NCBI GenBank assembly: GCA_965655095.1
Contig: OZ296649.1
Location: forward strand, 144,336,001-144,400,000
Reading direction: 5' to 3'
DNA: 64,000 bases
Origin: Haplodiscus bocki
Taxonomy: Eukaryota
Below the pieces are notes generated by a model. That model made no database searches. It was not told the origin of the DNA and was given only the letters and a program-made list of their open reading frames with translations. Numbering within the stretch: the stretch's first letter is position 1; each line of letters begins with the position of its first letter. Shown piece after piece: positions 1,489 to 21,061 of the stretch. Both the position numbers and the translations under genes were made by a program.

Positions 1489-1494
1489 GTCGCT
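1489..1494 (+). repeat. Left 6-bp target-site duplication GTCGCT
   Basis: Identical hexamer immediately follows the right terminus (21056-21061); 6-bp TSDs are typical of Polintons. Confidence 0.95.
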
Positions 1495-1839
1495 AATAGT
1501 GTACAAAAAGGCATTCGACACCAGGCACGCATGACGCAGCGTTGTCCGACACCGACCCCTTTCCCGTCATCACAAAAATACAAATCCTAGGGCGTATAAT
1601 TATATATTAACTAATAATTAGAAGAATAAAATTCGTTAATCAAAAAATTGAATGAATACAATAAAAAATAATTACACCCTAGGATTTGTATTTTTGTGAT
1701 TTTGTTGAGTGGTTGGTGTCGGACGACGCTGCGTCATGCATGCCTAATGTCAAATGCTTTTTTGTACACTACTAGTCATGAAAGTATACAATTATGTTGA
1801 ATTAGAAATAAAATTGAAATTATAAAATTACATACAATT
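1495..1839 (+). repeat. Left terminal inverted repeat (internal hairpin 1495-1773)
   Basis: Reverse complement of 20710-21055; manual alignment gives ~17 substitutions and 1 indel. Confidence 0.95.
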
Positions 1840-1857
1840 TCTTGCTCTTTATAAATG

Positions 1858-2061
1858 TTACAAAAACTCCACTGGCCAACTTTCTAATTCTACTTTTTCA
1901 AGCATATTTAGTGAGCACTCCTGGCAGAGTTCCCCATCGATCTTTTCAACTTTTTCAAGCATCAAGATATAGACAGTTCCTCCACATAGCTTTCGCGCAT
2001 GATGATGACAAAGACTGGGGGATGTTGGCTAACAGTGAACCCCAAACGCTGTGACTACCAT
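1858..2061 (-). pseudogene. Small Cys/His-containing Polinton ORF with one internal stop
   Basis: Own translation: MVVTAFGVHC*PTSPSLCHHHARKLCGGTVYILMLEKVEKIDGELCQECSLNMLEKVELESWPVEFL*; no family recognised. Confidence 0.3.
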
Positions 2062-2189
2062 TCAAGCATAGTCCTATTTTTAGTCAATGTTACAAATTTC
2101 ACTAGGCTATAGGAGGCAGTATACAAGGCGAGAAACTAGAATAATTATACATATTCTATCACAGTCTCATGCACGTGTATGTTGTAATA

Positions 2190-2798
2190 TGTCCACTCTT
2201 AAACATGTAGAGATTATAAAATTTTCAACTAGCTTGATGAGTGATATATCATTCGATAGCCTGTTAAAAGTTTAGTATACCCTGAAAGTTTCAATTTTGT
2301 AACTATAATAACTTTCGAGAAAATTGACAAAGTCAGTTTTGAATGTCGACATACCTTAAACATGTAGAGATTATAGAATTTTGAGCTACACCAACGTGTG
2401 ATATATCATTCGATAGCCCATCAAAAGTTTAGTCGACCATGAAAATTTCAATCCTATATCTATTACCATTTTCGAGAAAATTGACAAAGTCAGTTTTGAA
2501 TGTCGACATACCTTTAACATGTAGAGATTATAAAATCTTGAGCTAGAACAAAGTGTGATATATTTTTGGATAGCTCGTGAAAAGTTAAGTATACGCTGGA
2601 AATTTCAACTCTGTATCCATTATAATCTTCGAAAAAATTGACAAAAAAAGGAATTGTCGACATACCTTAAACATGTAGAGATTATAAAATTTTGAGCTAC
2701 AACAAAGTGTGATATATCATTGGATAGGTCGTCAAAAGCTATGTTTACGCTGAAAATTTCAACTCTGTATCTATTCTAATCTTCGAGAAAATTGACAA
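2190..2798 (+). repeat. Subterminal tandem repeat, ~4 x 154-157 bp
   Basis: (A/T)AACATGTAGAGATTATA recurs at 2201, 2358, 2515 and 2669; each unit contains TTCGA(G/A)AAAATTGACAA. Confidence 0.9.
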
Positions 2799-2874
2799 CA
2801 TTTTATGATTTCTTTTTATTTGATACTATTTCTTTCTCCTTTTAGATTTGTCGTTATTTTTGAAATATTAATAC

Positions 2875-2938
2875 TAGAGACATATTTACAATTATAAGAG
2901 TTCAAATACCAGAGTATACATACAATTATATGTGTTTG
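2875..2938 (+). repeat. Polinton-internal repeat (TACAATTATATGAG family), short copy
   Basis: ATTTACAATTATAAGAGT...GTATACATACAATTATATGTG matches the units at 4583, 7963 and 11469. Confidence 0.6.
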
Positions 2939-3019
2939 AAATTTGTCTAGTCTTTTAGAAGTATTCTTTCACTTTTACAACCATTTATAAGATAATAAAT
3001 ATGTTCTCAAACCAGTTAA

Positions 3020-3307
3020 CTAAACGTTATTAGATTTCTCAATCATTTTCTGATCATACATTTCAAAGATTTTTTTTCTCAGGATTGTGATTAGTGATTT
3101 GTCAAAATAAACTTTCATTTTTAGACATTCTATATATAAATCATCGAGGGTTTTCATCATTTCAACTAATTTATCTAAATCAATATTTTCGAATTCATCT
3201 ATTAAATTTTTTCTAATTATGATAGAAGTATTCAATTCTACACCAGACACTATGTTATATATCTCCATCTGATTGAAAAAATTCAACACATCATTAATCG
3301 TTTCGAT
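3020..3307 (-). CDS. Hypothetical ~95-aa helical protein, paralog of 20407-20694; start codon probably mutated
   Basis: Frame extends to ATC at 3307 in a TAAATC context, giving (M)ETINDVLNFF, similar to MKTISDCLNLF of 20407. Confidence 0.6.
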   Translation of the reverse strand: METINDVLNFFNQMEIYNIVSGVELNTSIIIRKNLIDEFENIDLDKLVEMMKTLDDLYIECLKMKVYFDKSLITILRKKIFEMYDQKMIEKSNNV

Positions 3308-3322
3308 TTATATATAATAAAA

Positions 3323-3922
3323 TTATATCATCCATGGGAATAAAGTTGATGGTTGAAAACCTATATTTCTAAAACAATTTGGGAGAAAATTGTATTCATA
3401 ATCACTATTATCCACTATTTGATAAATTTCTTCAATATAATCTCTTTCAAGTTTCCTACACAACATTGATCTGGGTTGATTCACATAGTGTTGTAATGTC
3501 ATTTCTTTAAGTTCGGATATAAATATTATATCTATCTCATCGGATATTGTTTTATATGCACAATTTCTATCAACAATATTTAGAAACTCACGTTCAGATA
3601 CTTTTACATATATCGGTATTTCAAACATATCTGGTTTAAACATATGTGTTCTTTGTAAAGTAATCGTGCGTGGAATCGAGATTTTATTTTTAATCATATC
3701 ATTTTTCTTCCAAATAATCATTACAGTAAATTCATTGAATTTTTTTTTATGCTCATCACAGTATGATTGAAGAATATCTTTAAATTTATTAATATCATTA
3801 TTTTTTACAATGTATTTATTTACAATCAAATTTGATAAGAAATATCTATGTTTCATCGTTTTTTCATGTTTATTTTTGTTTTGCTTTTTAATTTTAGCTA
3901 AGCAGATACTACACTCATACAT
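3323..3922 (-). CDS. 199-aa protein with N-terminal C2H2-type zinc finger
   Basis: Intact ORF; YECSIC-x11-HEKTMKH; TAAAT immediately precedes ATG; paralog of 4940-5488. Confidence 0.75.
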   Translation of the reverse strand: MYECSICLAKIKKQNKNKHEKTMKHRYFLSNLIVNKYIVKNNDINKFKDILQSYCDEHKKKFNEFTVMIIWKKNDMIKNKISIPRTITLQRTHMFKPDMFEIPIYVKVSEREFLNIVDRNCAYKTISDEIDIIFISELKEMTLQHYVNQPRSMLCRKLERDYIEEIYQIVDNSDYEYNFLPNCFRNIGFQPSTLFPWMI

Positions 3923-3938
3923 TTATAAATAAATATTT

Positions 3939-4235
3939 TTATTCTCTGCTGTCATTTTTATCGTTCTGTATTCTTTCTAAGTTGTTTAGAATTAACTCTC
4001 TCATCTCATAATAGTCTTTTTTCAATTCTTCAATACAAGTCTCGTACAGTCTAGTTAATGTATAGTTTGTTTTATTAAGTAAATCAAAATGATACTCGAA
4101 CTGTATTTCTTCACTTTCTAGTACGAAGTTATTAATCATTTTCATAAATAATATATAGTGTCCGTCTCTGTTGTTGTTAAGTAAACCTTCATCAATAATA
4201 TTTAATATATCATAAATATTTTTTGCAGTCCTCAT
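3939..4235 (-). CDS. Hypothetical 98-aa protein
   Basis: Intact ORF, TAAATG start, tightly packed with neighbours. Confidence 0.65.
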   Translation of the reverse strand: MRTAKNIYDILNIIDEGLLNNNRDGHYILFMKMINNFVLESEEIQFEYHFDLLNKTNYTLTRLYETCIEELKKDYYEMRELILNNLERIQNDKNDSRE

Positions 4236-4438
4236 TTATATAGAGAAAAAATACTTTGAAGATGTTTAATTCTACTAATTTTCATTTTTAATTCTATATC
4301 TAAATCTGATATAATTATTGACATTATATTTATTAATTCTTTAAGAATAATATTTTGAATCAAATTATCATATGCTATCTCAAATTTATGATCATAAGTT
4401 AATCTTTTATATCTATCTAACAAGTTATTTTTTTTCAT
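4232..4438 (-). CDS. Hypothetical 68-aa protein
   Basis: Intact ORF overlapping the next start (ATGA overlap). Confidence 0.5.
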   Translation of the reverse strand: MKKNNLLDRYKRLTYDHKFEIAYDNLIQNIILKELINIMSIIISDLDIELKMKISRIKHLQSIFSLYK

Positions 4439-4526
4439 ACATACGAAAGGATCTTTTTAAATTACATTTATAAAAGCTTCCATTTTAATAACGCTACTTC
4501 ATTTCAAATAATCTTATCTTAATGAA

Positions 4527-4814
4527 ATGAATAGTGATAATCCACTAGTTTTTTTTTGTGAAGATGATGGAGAATATAAAACATGGATACATACAAATAT
4601 ATGAGAATTTCTACTTGAGTATACATTCAATTATTCGAGTAGTTATACAACAATGATAGTACATTTATATGAGTACTTATAGTTGGGTATACTCACACTT
4701 ATAAGAGTTTTATGTTGTGAAATTTGTGATAAATTATGTATTGAACGATTTTACAAAAATCATCTCAAATCACAAACTCATATAAATAATATTCGTAAAA
4801 GAGAAAACTCATAA
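4527..4814 (+). pseudogene. Small C2H2 (U1/matrin-like) zinc-finger gene interrupted by the internal repeat
   Basis: MNSDNPLVFFCEDDGEYKT [repeat ~4583-4712] CCEICDKLCIERFYKNHLKSQTHINNIRKRENS*; both halves are in the same frame. Confidence 0.65.
4583..4712 (+). repeat. Polinton-internal repeat copy
   Basis: Starts ATGGATACATACAA like the 7963 copy and ends GGTATACTCACACTTATAAGAGTTTT. Confidence 0.8.
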
Positions 4815-4939
4815 TTTTTTTTTTGGTTCTACATCAAATCCGACAGAACGAAACAACGATCACAATATCAACTAAAGAATACATTGATAGTTTATATGTT
4901 TTAGATAAATCATTTCAAGTAAATCTCACTTATATAAAT

Positions 4940-5488
4940 ATGGATATCCTTTGTAAAGTGTGCGATAAAGATATTATAGAAAATGAATCTCAATATAAAA
5001 ATTATATAACCACTCTATGTAAAAAAGACGATAAAAGTATATAAAAAAAATATGTTAATAAATATTTTAATTTGGATGAAAATGACAAAATATTAAAAGA
5101 TTATGTTAGTTCTCATAACAAAAAATTTAATATCTATTTTATTTATTGTGAATATAAAATACAATTTGATAATAATTATACCAGAAATCTATCAACTGCA
5201 TGTGTTCACAATAAAGATTTTGAGAAAATATATCAAAGTCTAATATATTATGTTGAAAGTATTAAAATAAATGGTTATATATTTGAAAAAATTTATGAAA
5301 TGACTATTAACACAATTAGTGATAAATGTAACATTACACATGAAATATATTTTAACAATCCCATGCCTATGGTTGAAAGACGGATAAATTTTACTTTTGC
5401 TAAAAACCCACAATTGATAAATTCATTAGAACGTAATAAAAGTCACCCGCTTATCAGAAAATTTTCACACATACCTTTTATTAACTAA
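4940..5488 (+). pseudogene. Zinc-binding protein paralogous to 3323-3922, one in-frame stop (5042)
   Basis: MDILCKVCDK...DKSI*KKYVNKY...ILKDYVSSHNKKFN aligns by eye with IVNKY...ILQSYCDEHKKKFN; C-terminal YFNNPMPMVERRI aligns with YVNQPRSMLCRKL. Confidence 0.7.
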
Positions 5489-5491
5489 TAA

Positions 5492-5677
5492 ATGTATGTA
5501 GTAAATGTTACCGATGATTATGATAATATGACGTTATGTAATTGTACAAACAATGAAAATGATATTGATATAACTATACCAACATTATTATTTACAAAAC
5601 CATCTGGTCTATCATTTTTATGTTGAATATCCCTCATGGTATATAATGTAATCAAACCTTTATTCAATAGTAAATGA
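5492..5677 (+). pseudogene. Small putative membrane glycoprotein (61 codons, one internal TGA)
   Basis: MYVVNVTDDYDNMTLCNCTNNENDIDITIPTLLFTKPSGLSFLC*ISLMVYNVIKPLFNSK*: three N-x-T sequons, then a hydrophobic stretch; TAAATG start. Confidence 0.5.
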
Positions 5678-6402
5678 TGGAGAAGATTTTATATCCAAAT
5701 CATCCAGTTCGTTGTATAAATACCGGCCCTAGTGAATGTGGCAAATCAGAATTTTTAACAAATTTAGTTTTAAATATCATAAACGAATATGATAAAATAT
5801 ACATCTGTTCACCTAGTCTTCATGAAGACCTATATCAAAAAATAATTAAATGTTTTAGTAAATAGATACCAATTCACATAATCCCAAATATTCTAAATGA
5901 AGAAGATATAGATGTGGTTTTTGAAGAGTTAGTTAATAATAAAGACTTTGAAAAATCAGATACTGAGATAGAAACATATGATAATATAGAAGAATTAAAA
6001 TTTCCCCAAGATTATGAAAATAATAGTATCGTTATCTTAGACGATTTAAATCAAAAAGAAATGGATGATCCTAGAGTACAAGCAATATTTAAGAGACTTA
6101 GACATAATAATTTATCTATTTTTATAATCAGTCAAGTTTACTATGAATTAGGTAAAAAAACAATACGCTGTAATGGTAATATCGTTCATATAATTAAGCC
6201 GAACAATTTCAGAGATGTATTAAATCTCTATCAAGATAAAAGTTCTATGGATGTGACCCTTAATGAATTCAAATTATTAACATCTACTTGTTGGAATGAA
6301 AAATATCAACCTCTTACAATTGATATGACAAAAAACAAATACCAAGGCCGTTATCGACTCGGATTAAATAGTATATTTGTTCCGAATAGTTCTCTTTTTT
6401 AA
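5674..6402 (+). pseudogene. A32/FtsK-like DNA-packaging ATPase, one in-frame stop (5863)
   Basis: Walker A GPSECGKS, Walker B SIVILDD, and RLRHNNLSIFIISQ (A32 arginine/sensor motif); the two ORF pieces share a frame. Confidence 0.92.
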
Positions 6403-6418
6403 ATTTTAAGTCTTATAA

Positions 6419-7170
6419 ATGAGTATTTATTCAAATGTAACAGAACAAGATTTGAATAATCTACGTAAATTAGCTGAACAACAAAAAGAACAACAAGCTC
6501 TTAAAATTAAAAATAGAATCTTAAAACAGACATTTGATGAAAAAGTAGCAGAATCTTTTAGTCCTATTACAGAGAAATTAGATAAAGTAGTTGAAATAAT
6601 AAAAGAAACCAATACTCCTAAACCTGATACATTATTTGAAAATACATTAAGTAATATGAAAAAAATATTGGTTTTTTCAATATAAAAGAAAGAGATAATG
6701 GTGAAATTTTTTGGAATGGATTTTCAGTTAAAAAAATGGGTGGTAATAAACTTAAAATAAGTGAGAACATTTTTGAGATAACTCCAGGTATTCAAAATGT
6801 TTTTACTCAAACGTCTAACATACCACTGAAAAAATCAAATAATCAAGAGCGGGAAGTATATAATAATATTTTGGAAACTCTTGATTTTGAGAAGTACCAA
6901 ACTATATCTGGTGAATCTAAATCTGGTAGATATAAACAATCTAAAAGCAAATTTAAAAAACGTAATTTAAAAGGAGAAGGAGTTAAAATTATTATACCAT
7001 CTAACATAATTGATTTTTACACCAGATTTGAAATCTTACTCGGACTAAAATTATCTGGTCATACTGATACTCTAACAGAAACTAGTAACTTAATAGATGA
7101 ATTATACAAACTAGGTGAAATTCAAAATAAACAACAATTTCGAAATGCTCTAAATAAATCTAATTTTTAA
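6419..7170 (+). pseudogene. Conserved uncharacterised Polinton protein (coiled N-terminus, helical C-terminus), frameshifted
   Basis: C-terminal RFEILLGLKLSGHTDTLTETSNLIDELYKLGEI resembles the RLxLLxGxxxAGN...DEL motif recalled from Polinton accessory proteins; preceded by an LKGE/G adenain-type site. Confidence 0.6.
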
Positions 7171-7173
7171 TAA

Positions 7174-7960
7174 ATGAATCTTACATCTAAACTTTTAAAA
7201 CAAATAGCATTTAATACTAGACCTAAAATAGAAGAGCATATGTTGATTGTTATGCATAAAAGCACTCACACAGAGCATTTATATGAGCCACTACAAACAA
7301 ATAATAAACAATTTAAAATAGCTATCACTTTTCTAACTGCTTATAATGGTATTTTCAATATTACAAGTAAAAAATAACAAATATTATTTCTCAAAATCAA
7401 TCATCGATGATAATCATTTTCAGAACATTACTATTCCACAAGGTGCTTACTAAATTGAAAGTTTGAGTAAAGAAACTAAAAGGATTATCATCGACGAAGG
7501 TCATTTTACTCTTCAAGAATATCAGTTTACAATAAAGCCTAATTTTACTGCTCTTGGGTCTATTATTGAAATATCCAACGAAGAGTCAACGATATCATTC
7601 ATACCAGAAGATAGCATACCAGATCTTCTGGGATTTAATAAGACTTCAATATACGAAAAATACAATATGGCACCCAATCCAGTTGATATAATATCATTCG
7701 ATAATTTTTTCATTGAAAGTAATATTGCTCAAGGAATGATTTTCAAAGGCCGAAGATCTGGAGTAATACACAATTTTACAATGACCGTCAATCCGGGATA
7801 CAAATACGTCCAACGCTTTGAAGGAGTAATTAGCTGGTATATTATGAAAAATATTGATGTTATTTCGAGTATTTATTTTAGAATAAAAAATGAAAATGAA
7901 AATTTAGTATCATTTAATGGTCAATCAATAACATTCAGATTATCAATCAAAGAAATTTAA
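7174..7960 (+). pseudogene. Minor capsid protein (penton, single jelly roll), disrupted
   Basis: IPQGAY, LLGF, PGYKY and terminal IKNENENLVSFNGQSITFRL motifs typical of Polinton pentons; located upstream of MCP. Confidence 0.8.
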
Positions 7961-7962
7961 AA

Positions 7963-8157
7963 TATGGATACATACAACTATATGAGTTCCTATACTGAGT
8001 ATACTTACAATTATAACTTTCAGATGTATTCAATTATATGAGTACATATACTTAGGTATACTTACAATTATATGAGAAGTTATACAACCATAGAAATAAT
8101 GTGATAGTACAATTATATGAGTACTTATACTTGGGTATACTTACAATTATATGAGTA
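7963..8157 (+). repeat. Polinton-internal repeat, longest copy (~33-34-bp subunits)
   Basis: Repeated TATACTTACAATTATATGAGTAC(A/T)TATACTT(A/G)GG units. Confidence 0.85.
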
Positions 8158-8262
8158 GGTGTTTTATTTATACGTTTATGAAAAATATGAAAAGGTGTGA
8201 ATAAGTAAAAGAGTAATTATGCTAGAGTATACTTAGAATTGTAAGAATTTACTTCTTATTAA

Positions 8263-8418
8263 ATGCCGAGAACTTTAATAAAACCAAGATTACATCCCAA
8301 TAAACCTAAACCAGAAATTAGACAAAAACCTAATAATACTAAATCAGATTTACCTCCAAATTTACAATCATTTGAACAAAAATTATTATCAGGAAACGGT
8401 TTTGTTGAATATAAATAG
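8263..8418 (+). CDS. 51-aa basic Pro/Lys-rich putative core protein
   Basis: Own translation MPRTLIKPRLHPNKPKPEIRQKPNNTKSDLPPNLQSFEQKLLSGNGFVEYK*; TAAATG start; LSGN/G adenain-type site. Confidence 0.6.
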   Translation: MPRTLIKPRLHPNKPKPEIRQKPNNTKSDLPPNLQSFEQKLLSGNGFVEYK

Positions 8419-8433
8419 TTTTTTATATTATAA

Positions 8434-9720
8434 ATGAGCTTAGAAGACTTTCAAATATTATATAATGAACCATTTGATAATTCTATCATAAAAAGAGATT
8501 TTTTTAAAGTATACCATCAACAAGGTTCTCAATTAATTGATGCAGATCAAAATATTGAATTTATATTTGGCGAAAACAATAATTTTCATCAGCTCGGTAA
8601 TGCTTATCTCGAATTTGACATAACAGTAAGAGCTCTAAACGCCGCTGATGCTTTTGACGAAGACAGCCCCATAAGACTAACTAATAGCAGATTTGCTTGT
8701 GTGTTCCAAGAAGGAAGATTAAGCACTTCAACAACAGACCTCGAACATAATAAATACTTAGGACAAATTTCAACTATTATGAGATTAGTATCCAGTAGGG
8801 ATGGCGATTTGCTCTCACAATTTGATAATATTAATGAAGAAATAGGTGCTAATGACGCTGCAACATCAGATAATGTTCGACAAACTTCTCTGAACAAAAT
8901 GCTTATTACTAATCATGAAGCTGCTAATCGAAGTAAAATTAAAGGTCAACTTCCCTTGGAGCAAATATTTGGATTTTGTAAAACTTTCAAAAAGGTAACA
9001 AAAAATCTCGGATTTCGTATCACGTTTAAAACGGCAAATCTACAAGATATTATTTCAACAACAATTGCAGATGCTACTCCAGTAAATGTTACAATTAACA
9101 GTTTATATTTGTTTGTTCCTTTTCTAATACCAACTACTGAAACACAACTTTCGTTCAACGAATCTACTCAAAATAACTACCGAACATTTTTCGATGAATG
9201 GTATACAGAGCGTAGAATTGTAGCTGATCAGATCTTCCAAGTTGATATCGGAAGCGCTCAATCAGTCAATAGTCCTAAATATATGATTTGTGCCCATCAA
9301 ACAGAAGCCAGATCGGGATTACCTAATAAACGTAATATTTCAATATTTGATAATAATAATGTTAGAATATAATTTATCGAAATTGATGGACAGCGCTATC
9401 CACGCATTAGTGTTCTTACAAACTATGCTGAGAACGATTATATTGATCAATAAAGAAACTTAAAATTATTTTAAAAAGAATACAATAGAGAAGAACTATT
9501 GACTCCTTTTGTATCTTATACTGATGTGAAAAATAAAATTCCTATACAAGTAATTGATTTAAGGTTTCAAGCAGATCATAATACACCTAAGAAAATTCAA
9601 TTGTTTGAAGAATACAGAGCAGCACCAGCTAATGCTAGATTATATGTTATATTAATTAGACAAAGGGAAATAGAATTTATTTCAGATGGTAACAAATTGA
9701 TAGAAGTTAAAGTTGTATAA
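8434..9720 (+). pseudogene. Major capsid protein (double jelly roll), ~428 codons, three in-frame TAA stops
   Basis: One frame with stops at 9370, 9451 and 9472; motifs IEFIFG..AYLEFDI, LPLEQIFGFCKTFKK, IEIDGQRYP and PIQVIDLRFQ; size and position fit the Polinton MCP. Confidence 0.88.
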
Positions 9721-9729
9721 AAAGACAAT

Positions 9730-10133
9730 ATGAAAATTTTAAAATTTAGAGATTTTATGAAAAAATAAAAATTAAAAATGATACTATGAACGAATCTCAA
9801 TTACAGAAAATTTATAATTATCCTATATACCCAAGAGATTCTGAAATATATTCAGATAAAAGATTTGTAAATATAGATAATGGCTCTCAAGGTGGAACTC
9901 ATTGGACGGGTTTTATAGTAAAAGATAAAAAATCATATTATTTCGACTCATTTGGTGGTCAGCCAGATAAATTTCTATTGAGTCAATTATCAAAACCAAT
10001 AATATATCACAATTATAAAGTTCAGCATATCGATTCAAAATTATGTGGCTCATATTGTTTGTACTTTTTCTATTTGATTGAAAGGATGGATTATTACAGA
10101 GCTATATTAACATTTTATTTTCAGCAATTTTAA
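9730..10133 (+). CDS. Adenain-like cysteine protease (catalytic core 9786-10133 open, 5' part disrupted)
   Basis: GGTHW (His), YYFDSFG (Asp), VQH...LCGSYC (Gln/Cys). Confidence 0.9.
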
Positions 10134-10135
10134 AT

Positions 10136-11467
10136 TTGCCGATAATTGTATTTGGAAACTCTTCAAATAACTCTGATAACAAAATTGATACAAGTCTGTT
10201 TGTACATAAACTATATTTGAGAACTAATTATATAGAAAGTAATATAGAAGAAGACATTGACTTAAAAAATCAATATAGAATTAAAAATTTACCTGATCCT
10301 ATTAGCATACGAGAAGCTTGGAGTAAAATTTATGCTGATACTTTATTCAACGATCCTAGTATAGTGAAAAACACTGAACATATTGATCTGAACGATAGAA
10401 GTATTACTAATGCTAGATTTATTCAAGTTAATCAATTACCCCAAATAGCTTCTCATCAAACAGCAAAGCTATATGTCGATAATGCTATAGATGATACTTC
10501 ATTCTTGAGATTAGATCCTGATGGAGCGCTAGATCTAGATAATCAAGATTCTATAATTTTAAATTCTACTCTAACAGAACCAAAGACGATAATAGAGATA
10601 CCAACAAAAACTTATATTGATAGCTTACATGAAGAAAATGAGCGATCAAGAAGAGATTTAGGTATAGATTTTTATGATGAATCAAGTGATTTAGTTAAAA
10701 ATAATCAAGATAATAATTTCAATGATAACAAATTAACAAATATTATTTCTATTACACTAAAGAACAATCCATCTGATAACAACCACGTTAGTAACAAAAA
10801 ATATATTGACGATGAATTAGATAAAAATACTATTGTAATATTTAATCAAACGCCAGCAGATTATCTCAAAGTATCTGTTGGAAATGATACATTTAAAATT
10901 ACTAAATATGACAAAATACAATTGACTGATACAACAGTTATGAAATCTGGAAATACCAGCGGTTATCTCTTACCATATTGGAAAATTATTTGTAACGATA
11001 AGAATGGTAATGGTAAAATACAAAACTTTATAAAATCAACAAAATCAAATTTTCCAACAGGATCAAGCGGGCCTACATCCCTACCACCCATCGGTACTGC
11101 ATTCAAGTTTATCGAGACTAGTTCAAATAATTCCGGTAGTAATAATTTGTTTGTGATTTGGGAGAGAACAGATATTATCCGAATTACCAATATAACATTC
11201 TATTATAACAGATTTTCAACATCTGATTCTAATTTACGTGGGATGGGTAAATTTAGGACACAGTTATTATTAGAAGATAATACTTGGAGTGATCAATATA
11301 CTATCGCTAAAAATACTCAATATATTGATAAATCAACTGAATGGACTTTATTAAATTTAGATTTTACTGTAAAAAATTATGGAATTAAATTAATTTACGA
11401 TCAAATTGATGCAGCTCACGCCGATATGTGTTTTAGTAATATAACAATAACACATTCTGTATTTTAA
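10136..11467 (+). CDS. Putative fibre/spike protein: repeated stalk motifs plus C-terminal MAM-like domain
   Basis: 443-codon open frame (TTG start in TAAAT context). Repeats SKIYAD, AKLYVD, TKTYID, NKKYID. C-terminus TG..GP...G.AFKFIETSS...ITFYY...MGK...W..L.L...ADMCFSNITI. Confidence 0.7.
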   Translation: MPIIVFGNSSNNSDNKIDTSLFVHKLYLRTNYIESNIEEDIDLKNQYRIKNLPDPISIREAWSKIYADTLFNDPSIVKNTEHIDLNDRSITNARFIQVNQLPQIASHQTAKLYVDNAIDDTSFLRLDPDGALDLDNQDSIILNSTLTEPKTIIEIPTKTYIDSLHEENERSRRDLGIDFYDESSDLVKNNQDNNFNDNKLTNIISITLKNNPSDNNHVSNKKYIDDELDKNTIVIFNQTPADYLKVSVGNDTFKITKYDKIQLTDTTVMKSGNTSGYLLPYWKIICNDKNGNGKIQNFIKSTKSNFPTGSSGPTSLPPIGTAFKFIETSSNNSGSNNLFVIWERTDIIRITNITFYYNRFSTSDSNLRGMGKFRTQLLLEDNTWSDQYTIAKNTQYIDKSTEWTLLNLDFTVKNYGIKLIYDQIDAAHADMCFSNITITHSVF

Positions 11468-11468
11468 A

Positions 11469-11608
11469 AACTCATATAATTGTATGTATACCTAAGTATA
11501 TGTACTCATATAATTATACAATCACCTAATTTCTATGATTGTATATTTACTTGTTTATTTGTAAGTATACCTAAGTATAAGTACTCATAAATTTGTGAAT
11601 ATCTATAT
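11469..11608 (-). repeat. Polinton-internal repeat, inverted copy
   Basis: Reverse complement starts ATATAGATATTCACAAATTTATGAGTAC and ends GGTATACATACAATTATATGAGTTT. Confidence 0.85.
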
Positions 11609-11613
11609 TTTAA

Positions 11614-11856
11614 ATGGATAATGTAAATTATTTTAAAGATTTATTGGAATCAATACCAGATTATAAGAAGATTGTCTTATTAATGTTCCTAATTAAAAAT
11701 GATGTTAATTTTTTATACGAATGTGGATTTTTAAAAGGTGATATTAACTTTCTATATAAAGAATTTAAACTTATTTTACTTGAATTGAATGAAAATTACT
11801 TAGATTATATTAAAAACGAGGAGGAAGGGATAACTGAAAAGATTTTAGATAGGTAA
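11614..11856 (+). CDS. Hypothetical 80-aa protein
   Basis: Intact ORF, TAAATG start. Confidence 0.7.
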   Translation: MDNVNYFKDLLESIPDYKKIVLLMFLIKNDVNFLYECGFLKGDINFLYKEFKLILLELNENYLDYIKNEEEGITEKILDR

Positions 11857-12084
11857 ATGGAAGCTTATTTTGCTACGATTTTTGAAGATGTTAGACAAGA
11901 ACGATCGTTGATATTATTATTATCACTAACAGATCCAGATATATTGAAGCAATCCAAATTTACTGATGATGAGGTAAATATAATAAAAAGTTTAGCTCTA
12001 GAAAAACTTTACAGACAGAGAATACTAAAAGAGCATGTCGCAATGGATTTGTTAGAAAAACAATTTTCAGATCAATCAATATAG
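11857..12084 (+). CDS. Hypothetical 75-aa protein, possible distant paralog of the preceding ORF
   Basis: Intact, abuts the previous stop; DILKQSKFTDDEVN vs NFLYECGFLKGDIN. Confidence 0.65.
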   Translation: MEAYFATIFEDVRQERSLILLLSLTDPDILKQSKFTDDEVNIIKSLALEKLYRQRILKEHVAMDLLEKQFSDQSI

Positions 12085-12101
12085 ATACCTTTTTTTAATA
12101 A

Positions 12102-12714
12102 ATGACGACTTATCCAAATTTATATAATGAACCAGAATTGTTAAAAATAAAAACACGGGATGACGAAATTAAAAATTTAAAATATCAAACTGAAAAACAT
12201 GATCATGAGAATATATTGAAATCTCTAAAAATTGATAATGAATATTATAAGAGAAGTATAAAAGTTTAAATAAAGAAAGATATTGTTAATTATTACAGAA
12301 ATCTTCATTGGATCAGGATCAGCAATAAGTTCATCAACATTGGGGTTAATCAATCCTGGTGCGGGTAATATTATTTCAAGAAGTACAGCTCTATTAACTA
12401 GTATAGCTATCCTAATCACTATCGAAAACATATCAAAAATAAAGATACGATATACTAAATTACGTGATTGGATTAATGTTATTACACTTCTATATGAGAA
12501 AACTTTAAAACAATCAATGGTTGATAAGAAAATTTATGAAAAAGAAGCTGATGATTTGAAAAAGGTTTAAAATCATTATCTTGATGATAGAAAAGAAATT
12601 ATGAAGAATACACAATTCAAAGCCGCAGACTTTTTCGGTGATGTTTTAAAAAAAGATAATTTTAGTCAAGAACAAATAACTAAAATAAATAATTTTTTAG
12701 CCAAAATAATGTGA
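12102..12714 (+). pseudogene. Coiled-coil protein with hydrophobic two-helix hairpin (putative membrane protein), disrupted
   Basis: MTTYPNL... (frameshift) ILLIITEIFIGSGSAISSSTLGLINPGAGNIISRSTALLTSIAILIT... with an in-frame TAA at 12568. Confidence 0.7.
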
Positions 12715-12820
12715 ATATAAATATAAGTATTAAATTTAATTTTTTTAAAAAAAAGAAAGGATAAAATAACAAATTTTGAAGCGAGTGCTCCTCCCGAATA
12801 ATCAGATTTTTAATAATTAA

Positions 12821-12985
12821 ATGACAAAGACTTGGTGTGTTGGTGGAAGACATAAAAGCAATACAAATAATATTATTGAATAAGAAAAAGTGAACCCCAA
12901 GACTAAAAAACTTAAAATTATAAAAGGGACTTGTAGTATTTGCGGTCGTAATAAATCACAAATTTTTACTAAGATATATGAATAG
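12821..12985 (+). pseudogene. Small zinc-ribbon-like protein (DUF5679-like), one stop
   Basis: MTKTWCVGGRH...E*EKVNPKTKKLKIIKGTCSICGRNKSQIF; TAAATG start. Confidence 0.6.
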
Positions 12986-13408
12986 AGCACAAAATTTTAT
13001 CCAAAAAGGTAAATGCAAAAAAAATCATTGTTCATCTATGTCAAATTCAGCATGGACTGACTTAAATAGTAAAGGTAAAATACTCAAGCTACATGACATA
13101 TGTCCGAACCCTAAATGTGGTCGTCAGAAAAATATTACCTTCACACCACATCATTATATGCTTGAGGGAGGATCAATTAAGAGTAAACAAGAAAAAAATT
13201 TCAGAGGTACGAAAAAAGCATGGGATAGTTTTTTAAGCCAGGTTTGAAAATGGCTACACCTCTGATATCAGCTGCTGTGGCCGCGAAAACGAAGAAACCA
13301 CAGTCAGCTCAAGTTACGAATAGTATTTTAAAATCCTTAACAGGAGGTAAAATTTTGAGTCTCACTGATATGCACTCAGGTACTGGTCTCAGATTGCGAG
13401 TTATGTAA
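12978..13408 (+). pseudogene. Putative protease-processed core/membrane-lytic precursor, one frameshift
   Basis: LEGG/SIKSKQEKNFRGTKKAWDSF(L)KPGLKMATPLISAAVAAK...LTGG/KILSL...: adenain-type sites followed by a cationic amphipathic helix. Confidence 0.6.
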
Positions 13409-13437
13409 GATCATTTCAAATATAGTTAGCTAAGTAA

Positions 13438-14074
13438 ATGAGTAATTGTATTAAACATTTACATGATTTTGTTTTAATTAAAAAAGGTTGTGGATGTGGA
13501 ATTATGTCTTTAATGAGTAATTTTCATAGAGATAGAACAAAGAAAGATGGTTATAGACCACATTGTAAAATTTGCTGTAAGAAGTATTATCATGATAATC
13601 AGAATAGAATACTAATCAATCATAAAAAATATAAAAAATAAAATCGAGAAAAAATAAATATATATGAGAAAAATAAAAGAAAAACAGATTTAAACTTCAA
13701 AATAGCTTGTAATTTACGGTCAAGAACATCATCAGCTTTCGAATCTCAGAATGTTAGAAAAACAAATAAAACTTCTGATTTACTAGGATGTTCTCAATCA
13801 TTTTGTAAAAGATTATTCATCAACTATATGGTGATATGACTGATAAGAAAATTATGGTTAAATTTGGTGTTTAGACCATTGTCTCCCTCTTTCGAAAACT
13901 AACTTATCTAATGAAAACGATATGTATAAATCTACAAATTGGATTAATTTAAAGCCTATGTACGTAAAAGATAATATTATTGAAGGTGATGAAATTGATT
14001 ATCATCTATATCTATTACAATGAATAAAGGAGCATTATTTCCAGAGATTAAATAGTCAAGAGGGACTTAGCTAA
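13438..14074 (+). pseudogene. HNH/EndoVII-like endonuclease of the type common in large DNA viruses, disrupted
   Basis: FHRDRTKKDGYRPHCKIC; DLNFKIACNLRSR; DLLGCS; NYG..WCLDHCLPLS; NWINLKPMYVKDN. Confidence 0.75.
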
Positions 14075-14922
14075 AATCTTTTTTGATGAAATTTATAGTA
14101 AGCCACCTCATAAGAATTATGAAACAAGTAAGACAATAATCAAATCTATTGATGATACCTGGTCCTCAGATTTATTAGATATGAATGATTATGGTATTAA
14201 AAATAATAAAGGTTATAAATATATTTTAGTAGTAGTCGATAATTTCAGTAAATTTGGTTGGACAATACCTGTGAAGAATAAATACGCTCAATCAATAACA
14301 GATGCTTTTTCACATATTAGTGAAACAACAAAACGTAAACCAAATCTACTCGAAATGATGATGGTAAGGAATATGTGAATAAAAGTTTCAACGAATTTTT
14401 AATTAATCATAACTTTAAAAGGTATTCTAGAAATACAGCCCTAGGAGCAGTTTTCGCATAACGATTTCAAAAGAACCATATGTAATCTCTTGAAAAAGCA
14501 AGTGTTTGAAAAAGGAAAGGCTGATTGGTTAAGTGAACTTCCTTCTGTTATTAAACAATATAATAATACAATCCACAGCTCTATAAAAATGACTCCTCTT
14601 CAAGCTAGTAAAAAATTAAATGAAAGAAAAGTCTATTCAACTCTCAGAGATGACGTAGTGAAACAAAAACCAAGATACAGATTAGGTCGATTAGTTCGTA
14701 CAGCTGATATTAAACGAGTTTTTAGTAAAGGTGATTCGACAAATTATAGTTATAAGTTATACACAATAACTGAAGTCATTCATGACACTATACCCTCATA
14801 CAGAACCGACTATTTACCCGAGAGATATAATGAAAATTTATTATCTTCCTACTAAACTATCTCGTGAACAAAATAATGAAGTTATGAAGAAACTAAATTT
14901 AATTCAGTCATATAAAACCTAA
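14052..14922 (+). pseudogene. Retroviral-type (rve, DDE) integrase, no recognisable chromodomain, frameshifted
   Basis: WSSDLLDM, YKYILVVVDNFSKFGW, (T)DDGKEY, A*RF (catalytic Glu now TAA at 14459), YNNTIHSSIKMTP, FSKG..NYS; start ATA in TAAATA context. Confidence 0.93.
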
Positions 14923-14925
14923 TAA

Positions 14926-15443
14926 ATGGAATTAACAGAAGATGAAATTATTGAAAAATATGGAAAACACTGCGGCATTGTAATAGAAATACTCTCTTAC
15001 CCTACGAATAAGAATTTACTTGTTTCTCATGTGGATTCAACGTAAACAAACGAAATCATGAACTCTCTAAAACACAAAGAAAAAAAATAAATTTTATCAA
15101 TCGATTGAAGTATGCTGAACAGAAAATACTTTGTATTTGTATAGATTTATTTATGATATATGATGGTAAGGATTATGATGAAATATATAAAGTTTTATCA
15201 ACATTAAAAAATAAAAAACTAAAAATGAACAATACTTTAATTGAGATATACAAAGACATGTTAAAAAATTCTGAATTCGAACAAGATTTTTGGTCAAGAA
15301 CAGCAACTGGTATTTACAAAATTGGCCATGATAGTATCCGATTGATGAAGTGGATTTGTTAATATGATAGGTCATATTATGAAAAAATAAAATATTATGA
15401 TTTAATGGGATCTGTTTGTAGATATATTATTGAGATCACATAA
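14926..15443 (+). pseudogene. Zinc-ribbon protein, paralog A
   Basis: HC(G)HC...FTCFSCGFNVNKRNH...NFINRLKYAEQKI...SRTATGIYK; frameshift and stops. Confidence 0.65.
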
Positions 15444-15579
15444 TTACTCTTATACGAATATTGATCATTATTATATTTGTAGGAATAAGTTATCTTCTTC
15501 CTAATTGCTATTGATTAATATAATATAAATACATGTATTCATATATTCTTATAATCGTAAGTATTTAAATTTTATTTGA

Positions 15580-16248
15580 ATGAAATATCTAAACGGTGAA
15601 TATTATGTAGAAGTAAAGGATCACAGATATAAAATCCATCCAACTGAAAATATAATATTAGGACTTAGAGATGAACCAAAATCTCTCAGAACTCGAAATC
15701 AAGTTCAAAATGAGACTCAGATTAGAAGAAATCAAAAAGTTATTAAGAACATTAAGAACGATAACGATCAATTAATATTGAAAAATTATCCCAAAAATAA
15801 ACAGCCAGTTATTCAACCACAATACCCAATTTGTCCATCCTGCAAACAAAATAATTAGTTAGAATTTGATAAAGGTTACTATTGCAAAAACTGCGAATAT
15901 ATTATTAACAAGCAGAAACATCAGATAGATAAAAATGTTCTTAGACAAAAATGAAATTTTTCAACTAGATTAAATTATGCTAATAAAAAGATTAGAGAAA
16001 TATATATAAAAATGGTTATTACTACTTATAATTTATCAGACGATATGAATAATACATTACAAAGCTTAAAAGGTAAAACAAAATTATAATTTTATAAAAT
16101 TATAAACAAATATTATACTGAAATGAAAAATTAAAATTTTCAAACTCATCATGAAGATCGTTTTTCTAGAAACGCACAAGGTATAATTAAAAATTATCAT
16201 GGAGTACTATTGTTAATGAAATTTTTACAGACTAATGCCACAGATTAA
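15580..16248 (+). pseudogene. Zinc-ribbon protein, paralog B
   Basis: CPSC...YYCKNCEYIINKQKH...NFSTRLNYANKKI...SRNAQGIIK; in-frame stops. Confidence 0.65.
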
Positions 16249-16493
16249 TTTTATGAATGCTGATTATATGATTTATATTAATTATACTGTATTAAAACTA
16301 GAGACGGAAACGGGGATATAGAAAATCAAGATGAAAATGACGAGAATGATTACATTAATTTTAACGATATTATTACTCCTAATCATCATGCTGGAATTAA
16401 ACCCTGTGAGACAATTTTAAGGTAGGTGGAGAAATTTGAGATCTTGAATAAATCATTTCAAGTAATTCTTACTATATATATAGAGACGCAAAA

Positions 16494-19400
16494 ATGAATA
16501 GCCGCAAATGTGAGATTTGTATTGTTGATGTTCATAGAGCATCTTATATTAAACACTTAAGGATTAAAAAACACTTGGTAAATATGAAAAAGAATGAAAT
16601 GATTATACCAGAATGGTTATTCCAAGAACCTGTTGAAAAAAAGATTAATAAAATATATAATCCTAGATCATTAAAACAAATAGCACGAGATAACATTAGA
16701 TTAGATGACAGACAATTAAATAGAGAGTTAGCTAAAAAGATGATTAATCATTATTATTTTACTGATAGAAGTTTGAAAGTTGCATATAAAACTAATCTAG
16801 ATAGTCATAATCTTCATCATACAAATTCCAAATACTATCACACCTACTTTTCAAGAATTTGGGATAGAATTTGAGATTTATCAATAAAAATATGAAAGAA
16901 TTATCTATTATTTATGCTAGATTAACAAATCAGTATAAATTCAAATATCAAACGGTGTTTTCAGCAAGATTTGATCAACAAGATGAAGATGGCTAATTAT
17001 TAGATGAAACTGAATTATTCATTAATTTAAAAATTAATCATAATTTAACACAAAGTGATCTTGATAAAATTGATATTAGATCTCCATTAGAATACCAAAT
17101 TCAACAACAAGAAATGAAAGATTCTGGATGGAGATTTGATAAATTTTATTCAATAACAATATATTTTTATAAAACTACTGAAATGAATGGTTCAAATTAT
17201 GTTAAAAATCCTCTGAGATCAAACGCTATCTTGAATATCGAAAATATTGAAAAAAATTTTGTTTCTTGTGGTCTATATTAGCTTTTTTACATCCTTGTAA
17301 TAATAATCATCCTAATAGAGTTTCAAATTATAGACAATATTTTAATGAATTAAACGTTCAAGGTTTCGGTTTTAGTAAAGGATTCAGATGTAGTGATGTC
17401 CACAAATTTAATGAATTGAATAAATTATCTGTTAATATATTTGAGCTAAATTTTCATGAAGAACAGATTCAATGGAAACATAAATTATTACCTATTGAGA
17501 TTAGTAAAAATGATTCAGATAGAGTTATTGATTTAGCAATTTACAAAAATCATTATGTACTCATTAAAAAGTTAGATATATTTTTAGGAGATCATAACAA
17601 AAAATTTATTTGTAGACAATGCTTGAGTTCATATACAAGCAAAAATTTGTTAATGAAACGTAAAGAAAAATGTGGTGATGATAAAATAACTGTTATCAAA
17701 ACTTCAAATGAATCGCATCTACATTGGAAAAAAACATTTTCATAAAAATCCATTATATTTTAGAGTATATGCTGATGTTGAAGCTGATAATGAAAAAGAT
17801 AATTCTATTATAGGTAATAAAACAACTATCATTTATAAACAAAATCCAGTACTTAATGGTTATCATATAGTATCTGAATTGGAAGATGTTTTAAAAAGTG
17901 AATATTACAAATCTCCTTTAGGATATATTAATGTAGATTGGTTTGTCGATGAGGTTATAAAATTAGAAAATAAGATGGCCTTCTATTTTAAAAATACTAA
18001 CAAAGATATCATTATGAGAGAAGAAGATGAAGAAGTTTTTATAAATACTAACATTTGTCGATTTTGTGAAAAAAATATTGAATCTGATAAAGTTAGAGAT
18101 CATTGTCAATTAACTGGTGAATATAGGGGTCCAGCTCATAGTATTGGTAATATTAATGTTACTCAAGATCAAAGTTATTTTATACCATTTATATTTCACA
18201 ATTTTAGTAACTATGAATGTCATATGTTTTTTAAAAAATTGGTTGATAAAAAAAATAATAAAGTAAAGTTTGATATTATACCTAAAACGAATGAAGAGAA
18301 TATATCTGTGACTTATGGTTGTATTAGATTTATAGATAGTTATCGATTTTTATCGAGTGGATTGGATTCACTAGTTAAAACATTAGTTGATAATAGTCAT
18401 AAAACATTGAAAAATTTGAAAAAAGAGATTGTTGGTAGTGATGAAATATTGAATTTTGTTAATAAAATAGAAGAAAATTATCCAGAAGAAATTGAAAAAT
18501 TAGAAGAAGATGATAGGACTATTAAAACTTTAAAAAAATTTTATCCAGAAGAAATTGAAAATTTAGAAGAAGCTTTACTTAATTATATAGGTGAAAGTGA
18601 TCTTAAAATATTAAAAACAGGGTTTCCTGATATGTGGAAATATTTAACTAAAAAATTGGCAAACCCATATGAATATTTTAATAAGATTGATGATTATCAA
18701 AAACCTGTTGATAATTTGAAGAAAGAAGACTTCTTCAGTAAACTAAAAGACAAATGTCCTGATGATGAAGAAATAGAACGAACAAAGGAAATTATTAAGG
18801 AATTCAATACTAGAAACGGTGAAGAATTAACGGAAATTTATTTGAAAAGTGATGTACTTTTGCTTACATGTGTGATTGAGAAAATTATAAAAGTATCTTT
18901 TAATGAATTTGATATCAATCCACTATATTGTGTTAGCTTACCAGGTTATACTTGGCAGTGTGGTTTGAAATATACAGGAATAAACTTACAAACACTTCAA
19001 GATAAAGATATGACATTGTTATTAGAAAAAAATATCCGTGGTGGTTTAAGTAGTGTTATGGGTGATACATATATACAATCAGATGAAAATAAAAAGATAT
19101 TATATATAGATGCTAATAATTTATATGGTCATTCAATGTCTGAATCATTACCTAATGATGAAATTAAATTTGATAATAATGTTAATTTAGAAGATACAAT
19201 AAATACTCCTGATGATAGTGATATCGGATATTTCGCCGAAGTTAATTTAGAATACCCAGATAATACAAAAGAGAAAACAAAGTCTTTCCCGTTTGCTTCT
19301 GTGAATAAAAAAGTTAATCCTAATAAATTTAGTGATTATATGAAGGAAATTAAACTTGATACTTATATTCAAACTAAAAAACTGATATGTGATTGGTCTG

Positions 19401-20345
19401 ACAAGAAAAATTATTTGGTACCTTATAGGATGTTGAAATTTTATCTTAGACATGGTATGATAGTTGATAAAGTTCATAATATAATATCATTTAGACAGAG
19501 TAGATGGTTAGAGAAATATATAAAATTAAATACTCAGAAAAGAAATCAAGCTGTAAATGATTTTGAAAAGGGTTTCTACAAATTACTAAATAACGCTTTT
19601 TATGGTAAGACAACGGAAAATGTTAGGAATCGTTTGGAACTAAAATTTATTAAAAAAGATAATTATAGAAAAATAAGAGAATATCAATCTAAATTAACAT
19701 TCAATGGTATTCATAAATCATATGAGAATTGTGATAATTATACAATTAAACAAAACGAAGTTCTTATGGATAAGCCAATTTATCTAGGACTCACTGTATT
19801 AGAATTGAGTAAATTTTTAATGTATGAGACATATGATGATATACTACAAGTATATTTAGGACAAGAAAATATACAACTACATTATATGGATACTGATAGT
19901 TTCGTATTATGTGTAAATACAAAAGACATTATCAAAGATTTGAAAAATTTTCAAGAGATATTTGATTTCAGTAACTTAGACAAAAATCATGAACTTTTCA
20001 GTAAAAAAAAATAAAAAAGTAATTGGTAAATTTAAAATTGAAACACCTGAGAATATTTGGATAGATGAATTTGTTTGTCTAAGAAGTAAAATGTATGCTT
20101 TTAAATGTGGTGATGATAGTAAAAATAAATTGAAAGGTATATCAAAATCTCAATCTAGAAATATTAAATTTGAAGAATATAAAAAATGTTTAGATGGAGA
20201 ACAATATCAACGAGAATGTATTAATTATATTATTAAATAAATTAATCGTGAAATGGTTCTTCAAGAAGTAAAAAAAACAACACTATCTATTTTCGATGAT
20301 AAACGATGTTATATAAATAATATTGAAAGTAAACCGTGGAATTAG
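16494..20345 (+). pseudogene. Protein-primed family B DNA polymerase (pPolB), frameshifted
   Basis: ExoI YADVE, EndoVII-like insert CRFC..VRDHCQLTGEYRGPAH, ExoII FHNFSNY, FIDSYRF, ExoIII YLKSDV, motif A YIDANNLYG, motif B KLLNNAFYGK, motif C YMDTDS, KLKG; ends KPWN* at 20345. Confidence 0.96.
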
Positions 20346-20406
20346 TATTATTAAATGGTTGTAAAAGTAAAAGAAATCTTATAATTTGTAATTTTCTGTA
20401 TCCTAA

Positions 20407-20694
20407 ATGAAAACGATAAGTGATTGTTTAAATTTATTTGATTGGATAATGTCGTCTAATATAGAAAAACGTATTGGTATTGAAAGTCTTGAAAATGCTC
20501 GTGATTATGTGATTCAAACGACTAATGATAATTGTTTTGAAAATAACATGATAATGCTTGATATTCTTTCCGGAATAAATCTCATAATAGAAAAATTTCA
20601 TATCGCTGAAGATATTGAAATTAAAAAAGAGTGTGAAACGTTGAGAAAATTTTTATTAATTTGGTTAGATAAGTTGTATAAAAATATAGAATAA
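20407..20694 (+). CDS. Hypothetical 95-aa helical protein, paralog of 3020-3307
   Basis: Intact ORF, TAAATG start, ends just before the right TIR. Confidence 0.7.
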   Translation: MKTISDCLNLFDWIMSSNIEKRIGIESLENARDYVIQTTNDNCFENNMIMLDILSGINLIIEKFHIAEDIEIKKECETLRKFLLIWLDKLYKNIE

Positions 20695-20709
20695 TTATTA
20701 AGATCAAAC

Positions 20710-21055
20710 AATTGTATGTAATTTTATATTTTCAATTTAATTTCTAATTCAACTTAATCGTATACTTTCCCGACTAGTAGTGTACAAAAAAGCATTTGAC
20801 ATTAGGCATGCATGACGCAGCGTCGTCCGACACCAACCACTCAACAAAATCACAAAATTACAAATCCTAGGGTGTAATTATTTTTTATTGTATTCATTCA
20901 ATTATTTGATTAACGAATTTTATTCTTCTAATTATTAGTTATTATATAATTATACACCCTAAGATTTGTATTTTTTGTGATGACGGGAAAGGGGTTGGTG
21001 TCGGACGACGCTGCGTCATGCGTGCCTGGTGTCAATTGCTTTTTTGTACACTACT
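20710..21055 (-). repeat. Right terminal inverted repeat (internal hairpin 20776-21055)
   Basis: Reverse complement of 1495-1839; ends GTACACTACT. Confidence 0.95.
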
Positions 21056-21061
21056 GTCGCT
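21056..21061 (+). repeat. Right 6-bp target-site duplication GTCGCT
   Basis: Matches 1489-1494. Confidence 0.95.

Follow-up and report, generated by a model that had tools for sequence, protein, structure and literature searches.

Hairpin ends whose two arms evolve in concert in a Polinton family of Haplodiscus bocki

Sequence comparison indicates that, in a family of Polintons of Haplodiscus bocki, the outer and inner arms of the hairpin found at each element end evolve in concert. The explanation we favor, with moderate confidence, is that the arms are matched by strand fold-back during protein-primed replication, with the outer arm being copied onto the inner one and a patch of mismatches disabling the inner end. 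The window analyzed here comprises 64,000 nt of contig OZ296649.1, and L-numbers designate loci taken from the genome of the same organism.

The initial annotation had described each end of the window's element as a hairpin of about 280 bp holding an inverted second terminus, and this is what we see: the left cassette occupies 1495-1773 (279 nt) and the right one 20776-21055 (280 nt). Both are imperfect inverted repeats with arms of ~106 nt and an AT-rich loop of ~64 nt (Table 1), and the module is non-coding. The further claim that arm-specific variants are common to both ends is borne out by the window sequence, since the outer-type variants ACCAGGCACG and CCCTTTCCCGTC and the inner-type variants ATTAGGCATG and CACTCAACAAA are all present at the left and right ends. 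The left terminus reads AATAGT; the right end and most copies have AGTAGT. The left end has a predicted fold of -90.8 kcal/mol (z = -18.3), a value equalled by none of 100 shuffles.

Table 1. Features of the hairpin-ended element in the window.
Feature	Position	Strand	Remark
Left target-site duplication GTCGCT	1489..1494	+	Identical to 21056-21061
Left outer arm, true terminus	1495..1603	+	
Outer/inner mismatch patch, arm positions 27-42	1521..1536	+	35% mismatch vs 5-6% elsewhere
AT-rich loop, fixed orientation, family-variable length	1604..1667	+	Cassettes 275-551 nt; 0/131 flipped
Left inner arm, terminus in inverted copy	1668..1773	-	
Hypervariable junction after inner ACTACT	1774..1775	+	Here AG; 1-5 nt in the family
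Left TIR, core part beyond hairpin	1776..1854	+	TIR alignment
A32-type packaging ATPase, stop-interrupted	5674..6402	+	PF04665 on both pieces
Double-jelly-roll major capsid protein, first piece	8434..9372	+	PF21738, E 2e-4, under curated cutoff
Adenovirus-type cysteine protease piece	9750..10133	+	PF00770, E 0.006, under cutoff
rve integrase, broken	14052..14855	+	PF00665, E 1.6e-4, first piece, under cutoff
Protein-primed family B polymerase, main open piece	17690..20014	+	Relatives annotated PF03175
Right TIR, core part and 2-nt junction	20695..20775	-	
Right inner arm, direct repeat of left outer arm	20776..20881	+	
Right loop	20882..20945	-	
Right outer arm, true terminus ...ACTACT	20946..21055	-	
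Right target-site duplication GTCGCT	21056..21061	+	

The whole element measures 19.6 kb (1495-21055) between GTCGCT target-site duplications (TSDs), and its terminal inverted repeats (TIRs) of 360 bp (1495-1854 and 20695-21055, 94%) extend ~80 bp beyond the cassette. Its features identify it as a decayed Polinton. Like Polintons/Mavericks, it combines a protein-primed family B polymerase (pPolB) and, on broken pieces, an rve integrase, an A32 ATPase, a cysteine protease and a double-jelly-roll (DJR) capsid protein with a 6-bp TSD, TIRs, a size within 15-25 kb and (AGT)2//(ACT)2 ends, a motif reported for Mavericks in the available text of PMC8097293. Among the broken gene pieces, a single PF04665 match reached the curated Pfam cutoff. 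The polymerase piece gave no direct Pfam match; it has 1337 relatives at E<=1e-20 among 8000 scored, and the best 120 of these 1337 are 66-83% identical to it (one being the self match), with many annotated as PF03175. A polymerase-based scan of IMG/VR returned 16 pattern matches, none of them confirmed as a relative.

Other repeats were observed in the window. Four tandem 157-bp units lie near the left end (2198-2822) and also occur in family members and in a sister family described below. An AT-rich motif of 45-135 bp is dispersed between genes in both orientations (2887-2957, 4573-4730, 7954-8178 and 11467-11615) and is possibly a shared promoter element. A separate 1.4-kb stretch between 29-bp inverted repeats (23438-24847) is probably another DNA transposon.

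The hairpin is a family-wide trait. The arm motif has 477 + 479 matches in the 1.5-Gb genome, against 0 for the reversed control. Inspection of 110 loci yielded one interior stretch, one truncated end (L036) and 108 loci with both arms, so that 108 of the 109 end-bearing loci keep both. These 108 loci contain 111 cassettes of 275-551 nt, with loops of variable length. Of 36 paired elements, 34 are flanked by a 6-bp TSD, exact in 29 and with a single mismatch in 5, as are 6 of 6 further paired elements, one of them mismatched. With exact anchors and a gap of 214-300 nt, at least 840 cassettes were counted genome-wide, of which, again as lower bounds, 806 have C/T between the arms at position 27, 19 have C/C and 15 have T/T. 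In an independent metagenome assembly, three contigs were found: two carry diverged hairpin cassettes (438 and 493 nt) with different distal arms, one of them also mismatched around positions 26-29, and the third stops at the contig edge. Because of the 108/109 two-armed loci, the 34/36 TSDs and the cassettes on 2/3 metagenome contigs, these sequences indicate that the hairpin is not an assembly artefact. That it is older than the insertion in the window, as had been proposed, is borne out by this family-wide occurrence.

Several ends show rearrangements. At L036/L150, a sister-family terminus precedes what is left of a hairpin cassette, after which comes the polymerase end; this is likely a recombinant end. 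The loop of L050 is expanded by about six 54-nt tandem units and that of L054/L055 has a duplicated unit at both ends, with unchanged arms in both cases. Exact TSDs flank six elements whose ends are unlike in joint or subtype (L008/L003, L017/L029, L071/L072, L088/L089, L105/L106 and L208/L209), which suggests recombination between elements. At L049, L051-L052, L213 and L218-L219, ends are triplicated in tandem together with host flank; in L049, one copy also has a short duplication in its outer arm, and the next two have it in their inner arm.

The case for concerted evolution needs no statistic, because diverged subfamilies whose distal arms have been replaced stay self-complementary. In L200, L204, L192, L206, L160 and L202, the distal arms align with those of the window over no more than 15 nt, yet they pair with each other within the cassette. 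Variant counts are available as well. Measured against each column's commonest letter in 34 elements (L060/L061 and L067/L068, which have no TSD, are left out), 64 variants over 25 columns are present in all four arms, 86 in both outer arms, 46 in both inner arms and 150 in a single arm, while one-end-only (2), three-arm (7) and crosswise (3) patterns are rarer. When inner arms were shuffled among elements, all-four variants fell to 12.2±4.3 (maximum 31 in 1000 shuffles); the shuffle ignores relatedness, and 64 is therefore no count of events. For 13 elements, the closest among the 34 inner arms is the element's own. With 2 variants shared within one end only as against 150 confined to a single arm, the matching appears to be inherited and not made after insertion.

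The two ends of an element resemble each other even more closely than the two arms of one end. Mean distances are 2.4% between left and right, 6.2% between an outer arm and its own inner arm, and 9.7% between outer arms of different elements. Single-arm mutations amount to 1.1% per arm, which predicts ~2.2% between ends; since the observed 2.4% is about this value, the ends would have been nearly identical at insertion. End-to-end correction thus appears to be faster than arm-to-arm conversion.

These distances bear on the proposal that each displaced strand folds back locally into a duplex origin for protein priming, replacing the pairing of distant ends. A sister family in the same genome serves as the comparison. 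It is larger (711 + 749 ends) and has the core as well as the initial ~45 nt of the terminus in common with the hairpin family, and in 14 of 14 ends inspected the inverted terminus is absent; because this larger family has no hairpin at all, the hairpin is dispensable for Polinton replication. The predicted folds of the hairpin family are very stable on all four strands (-87 to -97 kcal/mol), those of the sister family weak (-11 to -27 kcal/mol; first 280 nt, five ends), and the TIRs are short in the former (309-367 bp in 10 of 11 pairs, 835 in the remaining one, with 30-85 bp kept beyond the cassette) and plain and long in the latter (about 0.9-1.5 kb in 6 of 6). Both differences speak for a local origin. 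Fold-back itself likely occurs, the concerted evolution of the arms being indirect evidence for it. The clause "without pairing ends" fares worse: left and right ends differ by far less than outer and inner arms, and they have loop duplications and joint bases in common, so end-to-end correction would still be the faster route. We consider a local origin that replaces end pairing quite unlikely, and in its strong form it is contradicted.

The two arms differ systematically at one place. Mismatch between an outer arm and its own inner arm is 4.8% at positions 1-26, 35.4% at positions 27-42 and 6.0% at positions 43-102. Position 27 is unlike between the arms in 68 of 68 ends, and across this patch the inner arm exceeds the outer by 1 nt in 56 of 72 ends (6 are equal and 10 unparsed). 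The sister-family terminus is nearer to the outer than to the inner arm in 35 of 35 elements, which makes the outer form the likely ancestral working end and the inner form an altered copy. The patch appears not to be strictly required: against such a necessity stand the 19 cassettes with C at position 27 in both arms. In the window copy, the patch in the inner arm is partly converted to the outer type, and conversion of most of the patch did not keep its subfamily (L001-L007, L030) from spreading. Strong selection is therefore possible on part of the patch alone, chiefly position 27.

Conversion between the arms seems to run mostly from outer to inner. All-four variants were also found as outer-only in 14 cases and as inner-only in 3, and the outer letter appears in inner arms at columns 31, 35 and 36 in 5, 7 and 7 of 68, as compared with 0 of 68 for the reverse. 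The counter-examples are L213 and L214, which have ends with an inner-type outer arm (in L213 at one end only), and therefore conversion must also run from inner to outer at times.

Such rare one-end conversions, together with the seven three-arm patterns, would suit a neutral relic, that is, one old copy-back accident whose arms are kept alike by gene conversion in host chromosomes while the inner arm has no role; a sister family that thrives without a hairpin fits this as well. Host-chromosome conversion, however, sits poorly with 2 one-end-only variants as against 64 in all four arms. The patch persists in subfamilies with replaced distal arms, and nearly all end loci (108/109) retain both arms, even though an element can be deleted through this arrangement. 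We therefore regard a relic without function as very improbable.

The joint between the inner ACTACT and the core is another place of rapid change. It measures 1-5 nt, with 24 forms among 101 cassettes, and 26 of 34 elements have the same joint left and right. Over a tree of 30 elements, which leaves out six pairs with unlike or unparsed joints, it changed 19 times, while 332 three-column windows changed 4.2 times on average (maximum 15). This is near the value for random labels (shuffle mean 21.8; 19 or fewer in 14 of 1000 shuffles). We infer that some process acts repeatedly at the inner terminus. The joint is not a copy of the present host flank, an option rejected since 34 pairs gave no consistent match.

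The orientation of the ends is fixed. We classed 192 cassettes, of which 61 were unorientable or had core on both sides; the 131 with core on one side comprise 115 outer/inner, 14 outer/outer and 2 inner/inner cassettes, and by a crude motif rule none of the 131 is flipped, with the inner arm outside and the outer arm inside. Ends of the AAV type flip-flop, unlike these hairpin-Polinton ends, and because no flipped end was seen, terminal resolution of the AAV type is unlikely.

Two groups of unusual loci were set aside. L111/L112 and L125/L126 were considered as propagating outer/outer elements and rejected, as their inverted host flanks mark them as rearranged loci. At L111/L112/L149, L125/L126 and L133/L134, host flank is repeated in inverted form beyond the other end over ~1.1, 0.5-0.8 and 0.4 kb, respectively; the original right end of L111/L112, with CAGGCC as its TSD, is situated further out. 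The two inverted-flank cases that belong to the hairpin family have C at position 27 in both arms. A terminus directly after the inner arm in L064/L117, a candidate for the origin of a third arm, proved to be an inserted sister-family element with its own TSD, TACTTA. In this single case (L117/L144, G000:C1:113.88-113.90 Mb), the insertion lies 2 nt inside the end of the inner arm, perhaps by chance or because the site is structure-prone.

A fixed mismatch, a length difference and a single orientation are also the hallmarks of the left end of minute virus of mice (MVM), a terminal hairpin whose fixed GA/GAA mismatch, differing by one base, makes one arm an active origin and the other inactive, according to the available part of PMC1185569. 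By analogy, a displaced 3' end could fold onto the inner arm and prime synthesis; the resulting dimer joint would hold a live outer and a dead inner origin, protein priming from the live origin would keep one orientation, and an end that lost its cassette would be rebuilt through the short core TIR, with its joint bases rewritten. The absence of flips, the conserved 1-nt length difference resembling GA/GAA (PMC1185569, as available), the hypervariable joint and the TIR of 30-85 bp kept beyond the cassette all speak for this, and hairpin priming has been proposed for virophage and PLV terminal palindromes (10.64898/2026.07.28.741278, available in part). Nevertheless, the element retains pPolB and (AGT)2 jump-back ends, which make a hairpin primer unneeded, and trimming and refilling of a folded 3' end predicts conversion from inner to outer, opposite to the observed bias. 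There is no head-to-head dimer joint among the cassettes examined, and the 19 ORF pieces scanned, which cover part of the broken genes, gave no Pfam match to a Rep/NS1-type nickase. Parvoviruses differ further in having ssDNA, an NS1/Rep nickase and no terminal-protein polymerase. Asymmetric resolution of this kind is the main rival to the favored explanation but, in our assessment, unlikely.

Since the left-outer and right-inner arms are direct repeats, exchange between them can give solo and tandem products. In LTR retroelements, direct-repeat recombination leaves one terminal unit between the TSDs, the solo LTR, with tandem copies as the reciprocal product; to our knowledge, solos are normally impossible in TIR elements. 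The direct repeats involved here differ from LTRs in being arms of two inverted hairpins in a TIR element. The initial annotation had predicted this recombination and suggested a search for TSD-flanked solo cassettes, and both reciprocal products were found: four to five such solos of 278-357 bp and four inner/inner junctions.

Among all 19 C/C cassettes, exact 6-bp TSDs flank L115 (278 bp), L122 (316 bp) and L123 (357 bp; its TSD is AT-rich and a polymerase fragment lies 0.8 kb off), and L113 is a solo with two TSD mismatches; these four came from a search that selected C at position 27. The 40 unpaired C/T cassettes add one solo, L190, whose TSD has a single mismatch and whose empty site is represented in L007 by a paralogous host repeat. 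In each of the five solos both arms have the outer patch, and the arms of L122 match at 102 of 102 bases. The 20 unpaired loci L031-L050 contain no solo. On the reciprocal side, 14 of the 15 T/T cassettes were inspected, and four have core on both sides, joining copies head to tail through inner/inner joints: L154 and L155 (together in a trimer of a 13,444-bp unit), L158 and L159. The last is a dimer of a mini-element with a hybrid junction arm, whose patch is of the inner type and whose sequence near position 88 is of the outer type. We also observed that this non-autonomous mini-Polinton of ~1.9 kb, two cassettes around a polymerase 3' fragment, occurs as monomer and head-to-tail dimer (L232, L159, L233; G000:C4:82.844-82.850 Mb).

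As with solo LTRs, therefore, there is a solo unit between TSDs, a reciprocal tandem joint and a hybrid repeat, and the solos and inner/inner junctions are likely reciprocal products of left-outer and right-inner exchange. A free circle was not seen; three tail-to-head terminus-joint pattern matches were obtained, none of which is a circle joint.

The solos could also be taken as evidence that the cassette moves alone, as a MITE or IS-like module mobilized by the integrase or as a copy-back mini-replicon that has two outer ends and inserts de novo. The four to five solos are indeed short non-coding units with TIRs and a 6-bp TSD, the perfect arms of L122 and the empty site of L190 also speak for such a unit, and a given solo may be a single copy-back molecule integrated de novo. 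An amplified, homogeneous MITE family was nevertheless not found (solos are 3-4 of 19 C/C and 1 of 40 unpaired C/T cassettes). The solos are few, unlike in subtype and all different in length, with the outer-type patch on both arms of every one; inner/inner junctions are about as frequent (4 vs 4-5), as reciprocal exchange predicts, and L159 has a hybrid arm. Mobilization of the cassette, which the initial annotation had put forward, is thus not upheld and seems to us most improbable. We found neither integration at an inner end nor a solo with an inner-type patch. In the composite transposons Tn5 and Tn10, each of two inverted modules likewise pairs a strong outer end with an inner end of altered sequence; the module described here differs in measuring 280 bp, being non-coding and showing no inner-end integration.

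Fold-back copying during protein-primed replication, the explanation we favor, can be laid out in steps, read from integrated fossils alone. Strand displacement primed by protein would start at the outer ends. Template switching is known at imperfect palindromes, and while the new strand passes the inner arm, its 3' end would sometimes pair with its own finished outer arm and copy it. Conversion tracts that miss the patch would be inherited, while those converting it would create a second live end 280 bp inside and would mostly be lost, with selection keeping the inner end inactive as a terminus. Run-off at the protein-capped 5' end, followed by return to the true template, would scar the joint. 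The ordinary panhandle would still correct the distant ends against each other, and recombination of integrated copies would occasionally yield a solo cassette or a tandem copy.

Compared with other Polintons, the peculiarity of this family is that each TIR contains an inverted second terminus, which the sister family in the same genome does not have. TIR length itself is ordinary, falling inside the range of 46-1447 bp given for vertebrate Mavericks in the available text of PMC8097293. Hairpin TIRs are not described in the available portions of PMC8097293, PMC6431247, PMC4196379, PMC12220804 and 10.1101/2025.02.07.637071; of these, PMC4196379 presents a model of Polinton replication and excision through a single-stranded, racket-like intermediate. 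The full-text literature on Polintons, Mavericks and adintoviruses, a coverage that leaves founding papers, Repbase and supplements outside, provided one precedent, available in part: a 2026 bioRxiv report on endogenous virophages of Halocafeteria seosinensis and PLV subtype 4 with terminal palindromes (10.64898/2026.07.28.741278). There too, the palindrome lies within the TIR and adjoins the TSD, and hairpin priming is proposed. The palindromes of that report are 52 nt (subtype 5), with a gap limit of 10, in mostly non-pPolB protist elements, as opposed to the arms of ~106 nt, loop of at least 64 nt, pPolB element and animal host found here. Concerted evolution, a conserved mismatch, solos and junctions are absent from the account as available.

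These findings indicate that the family preserves fingerprints of end processing, namely a templating arm, a patch by which the working end is marked and a joint that is rewritten much faster than the sequence beside it, and the hairpin-less sister family in the same genome provides a built-in control. They also describe a route by which a TIR element can become a solo end or multiply head to tail, as LTR elements do, and this bears on the counting and annotation of such repeats. A more far-reaching reading, which we put forward only tentatively, is that this lineage has added to protein priming a telomere in the style of parvoviruses: a hairpin that templates itself, with live and dead origins, a one-base spacing patch and an inner joint that is rewritten during replication. 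If so, replication in these elements would combine hairpin priming with protein priming, and their ends would record a Polinton replication intermediate directly in the genome.
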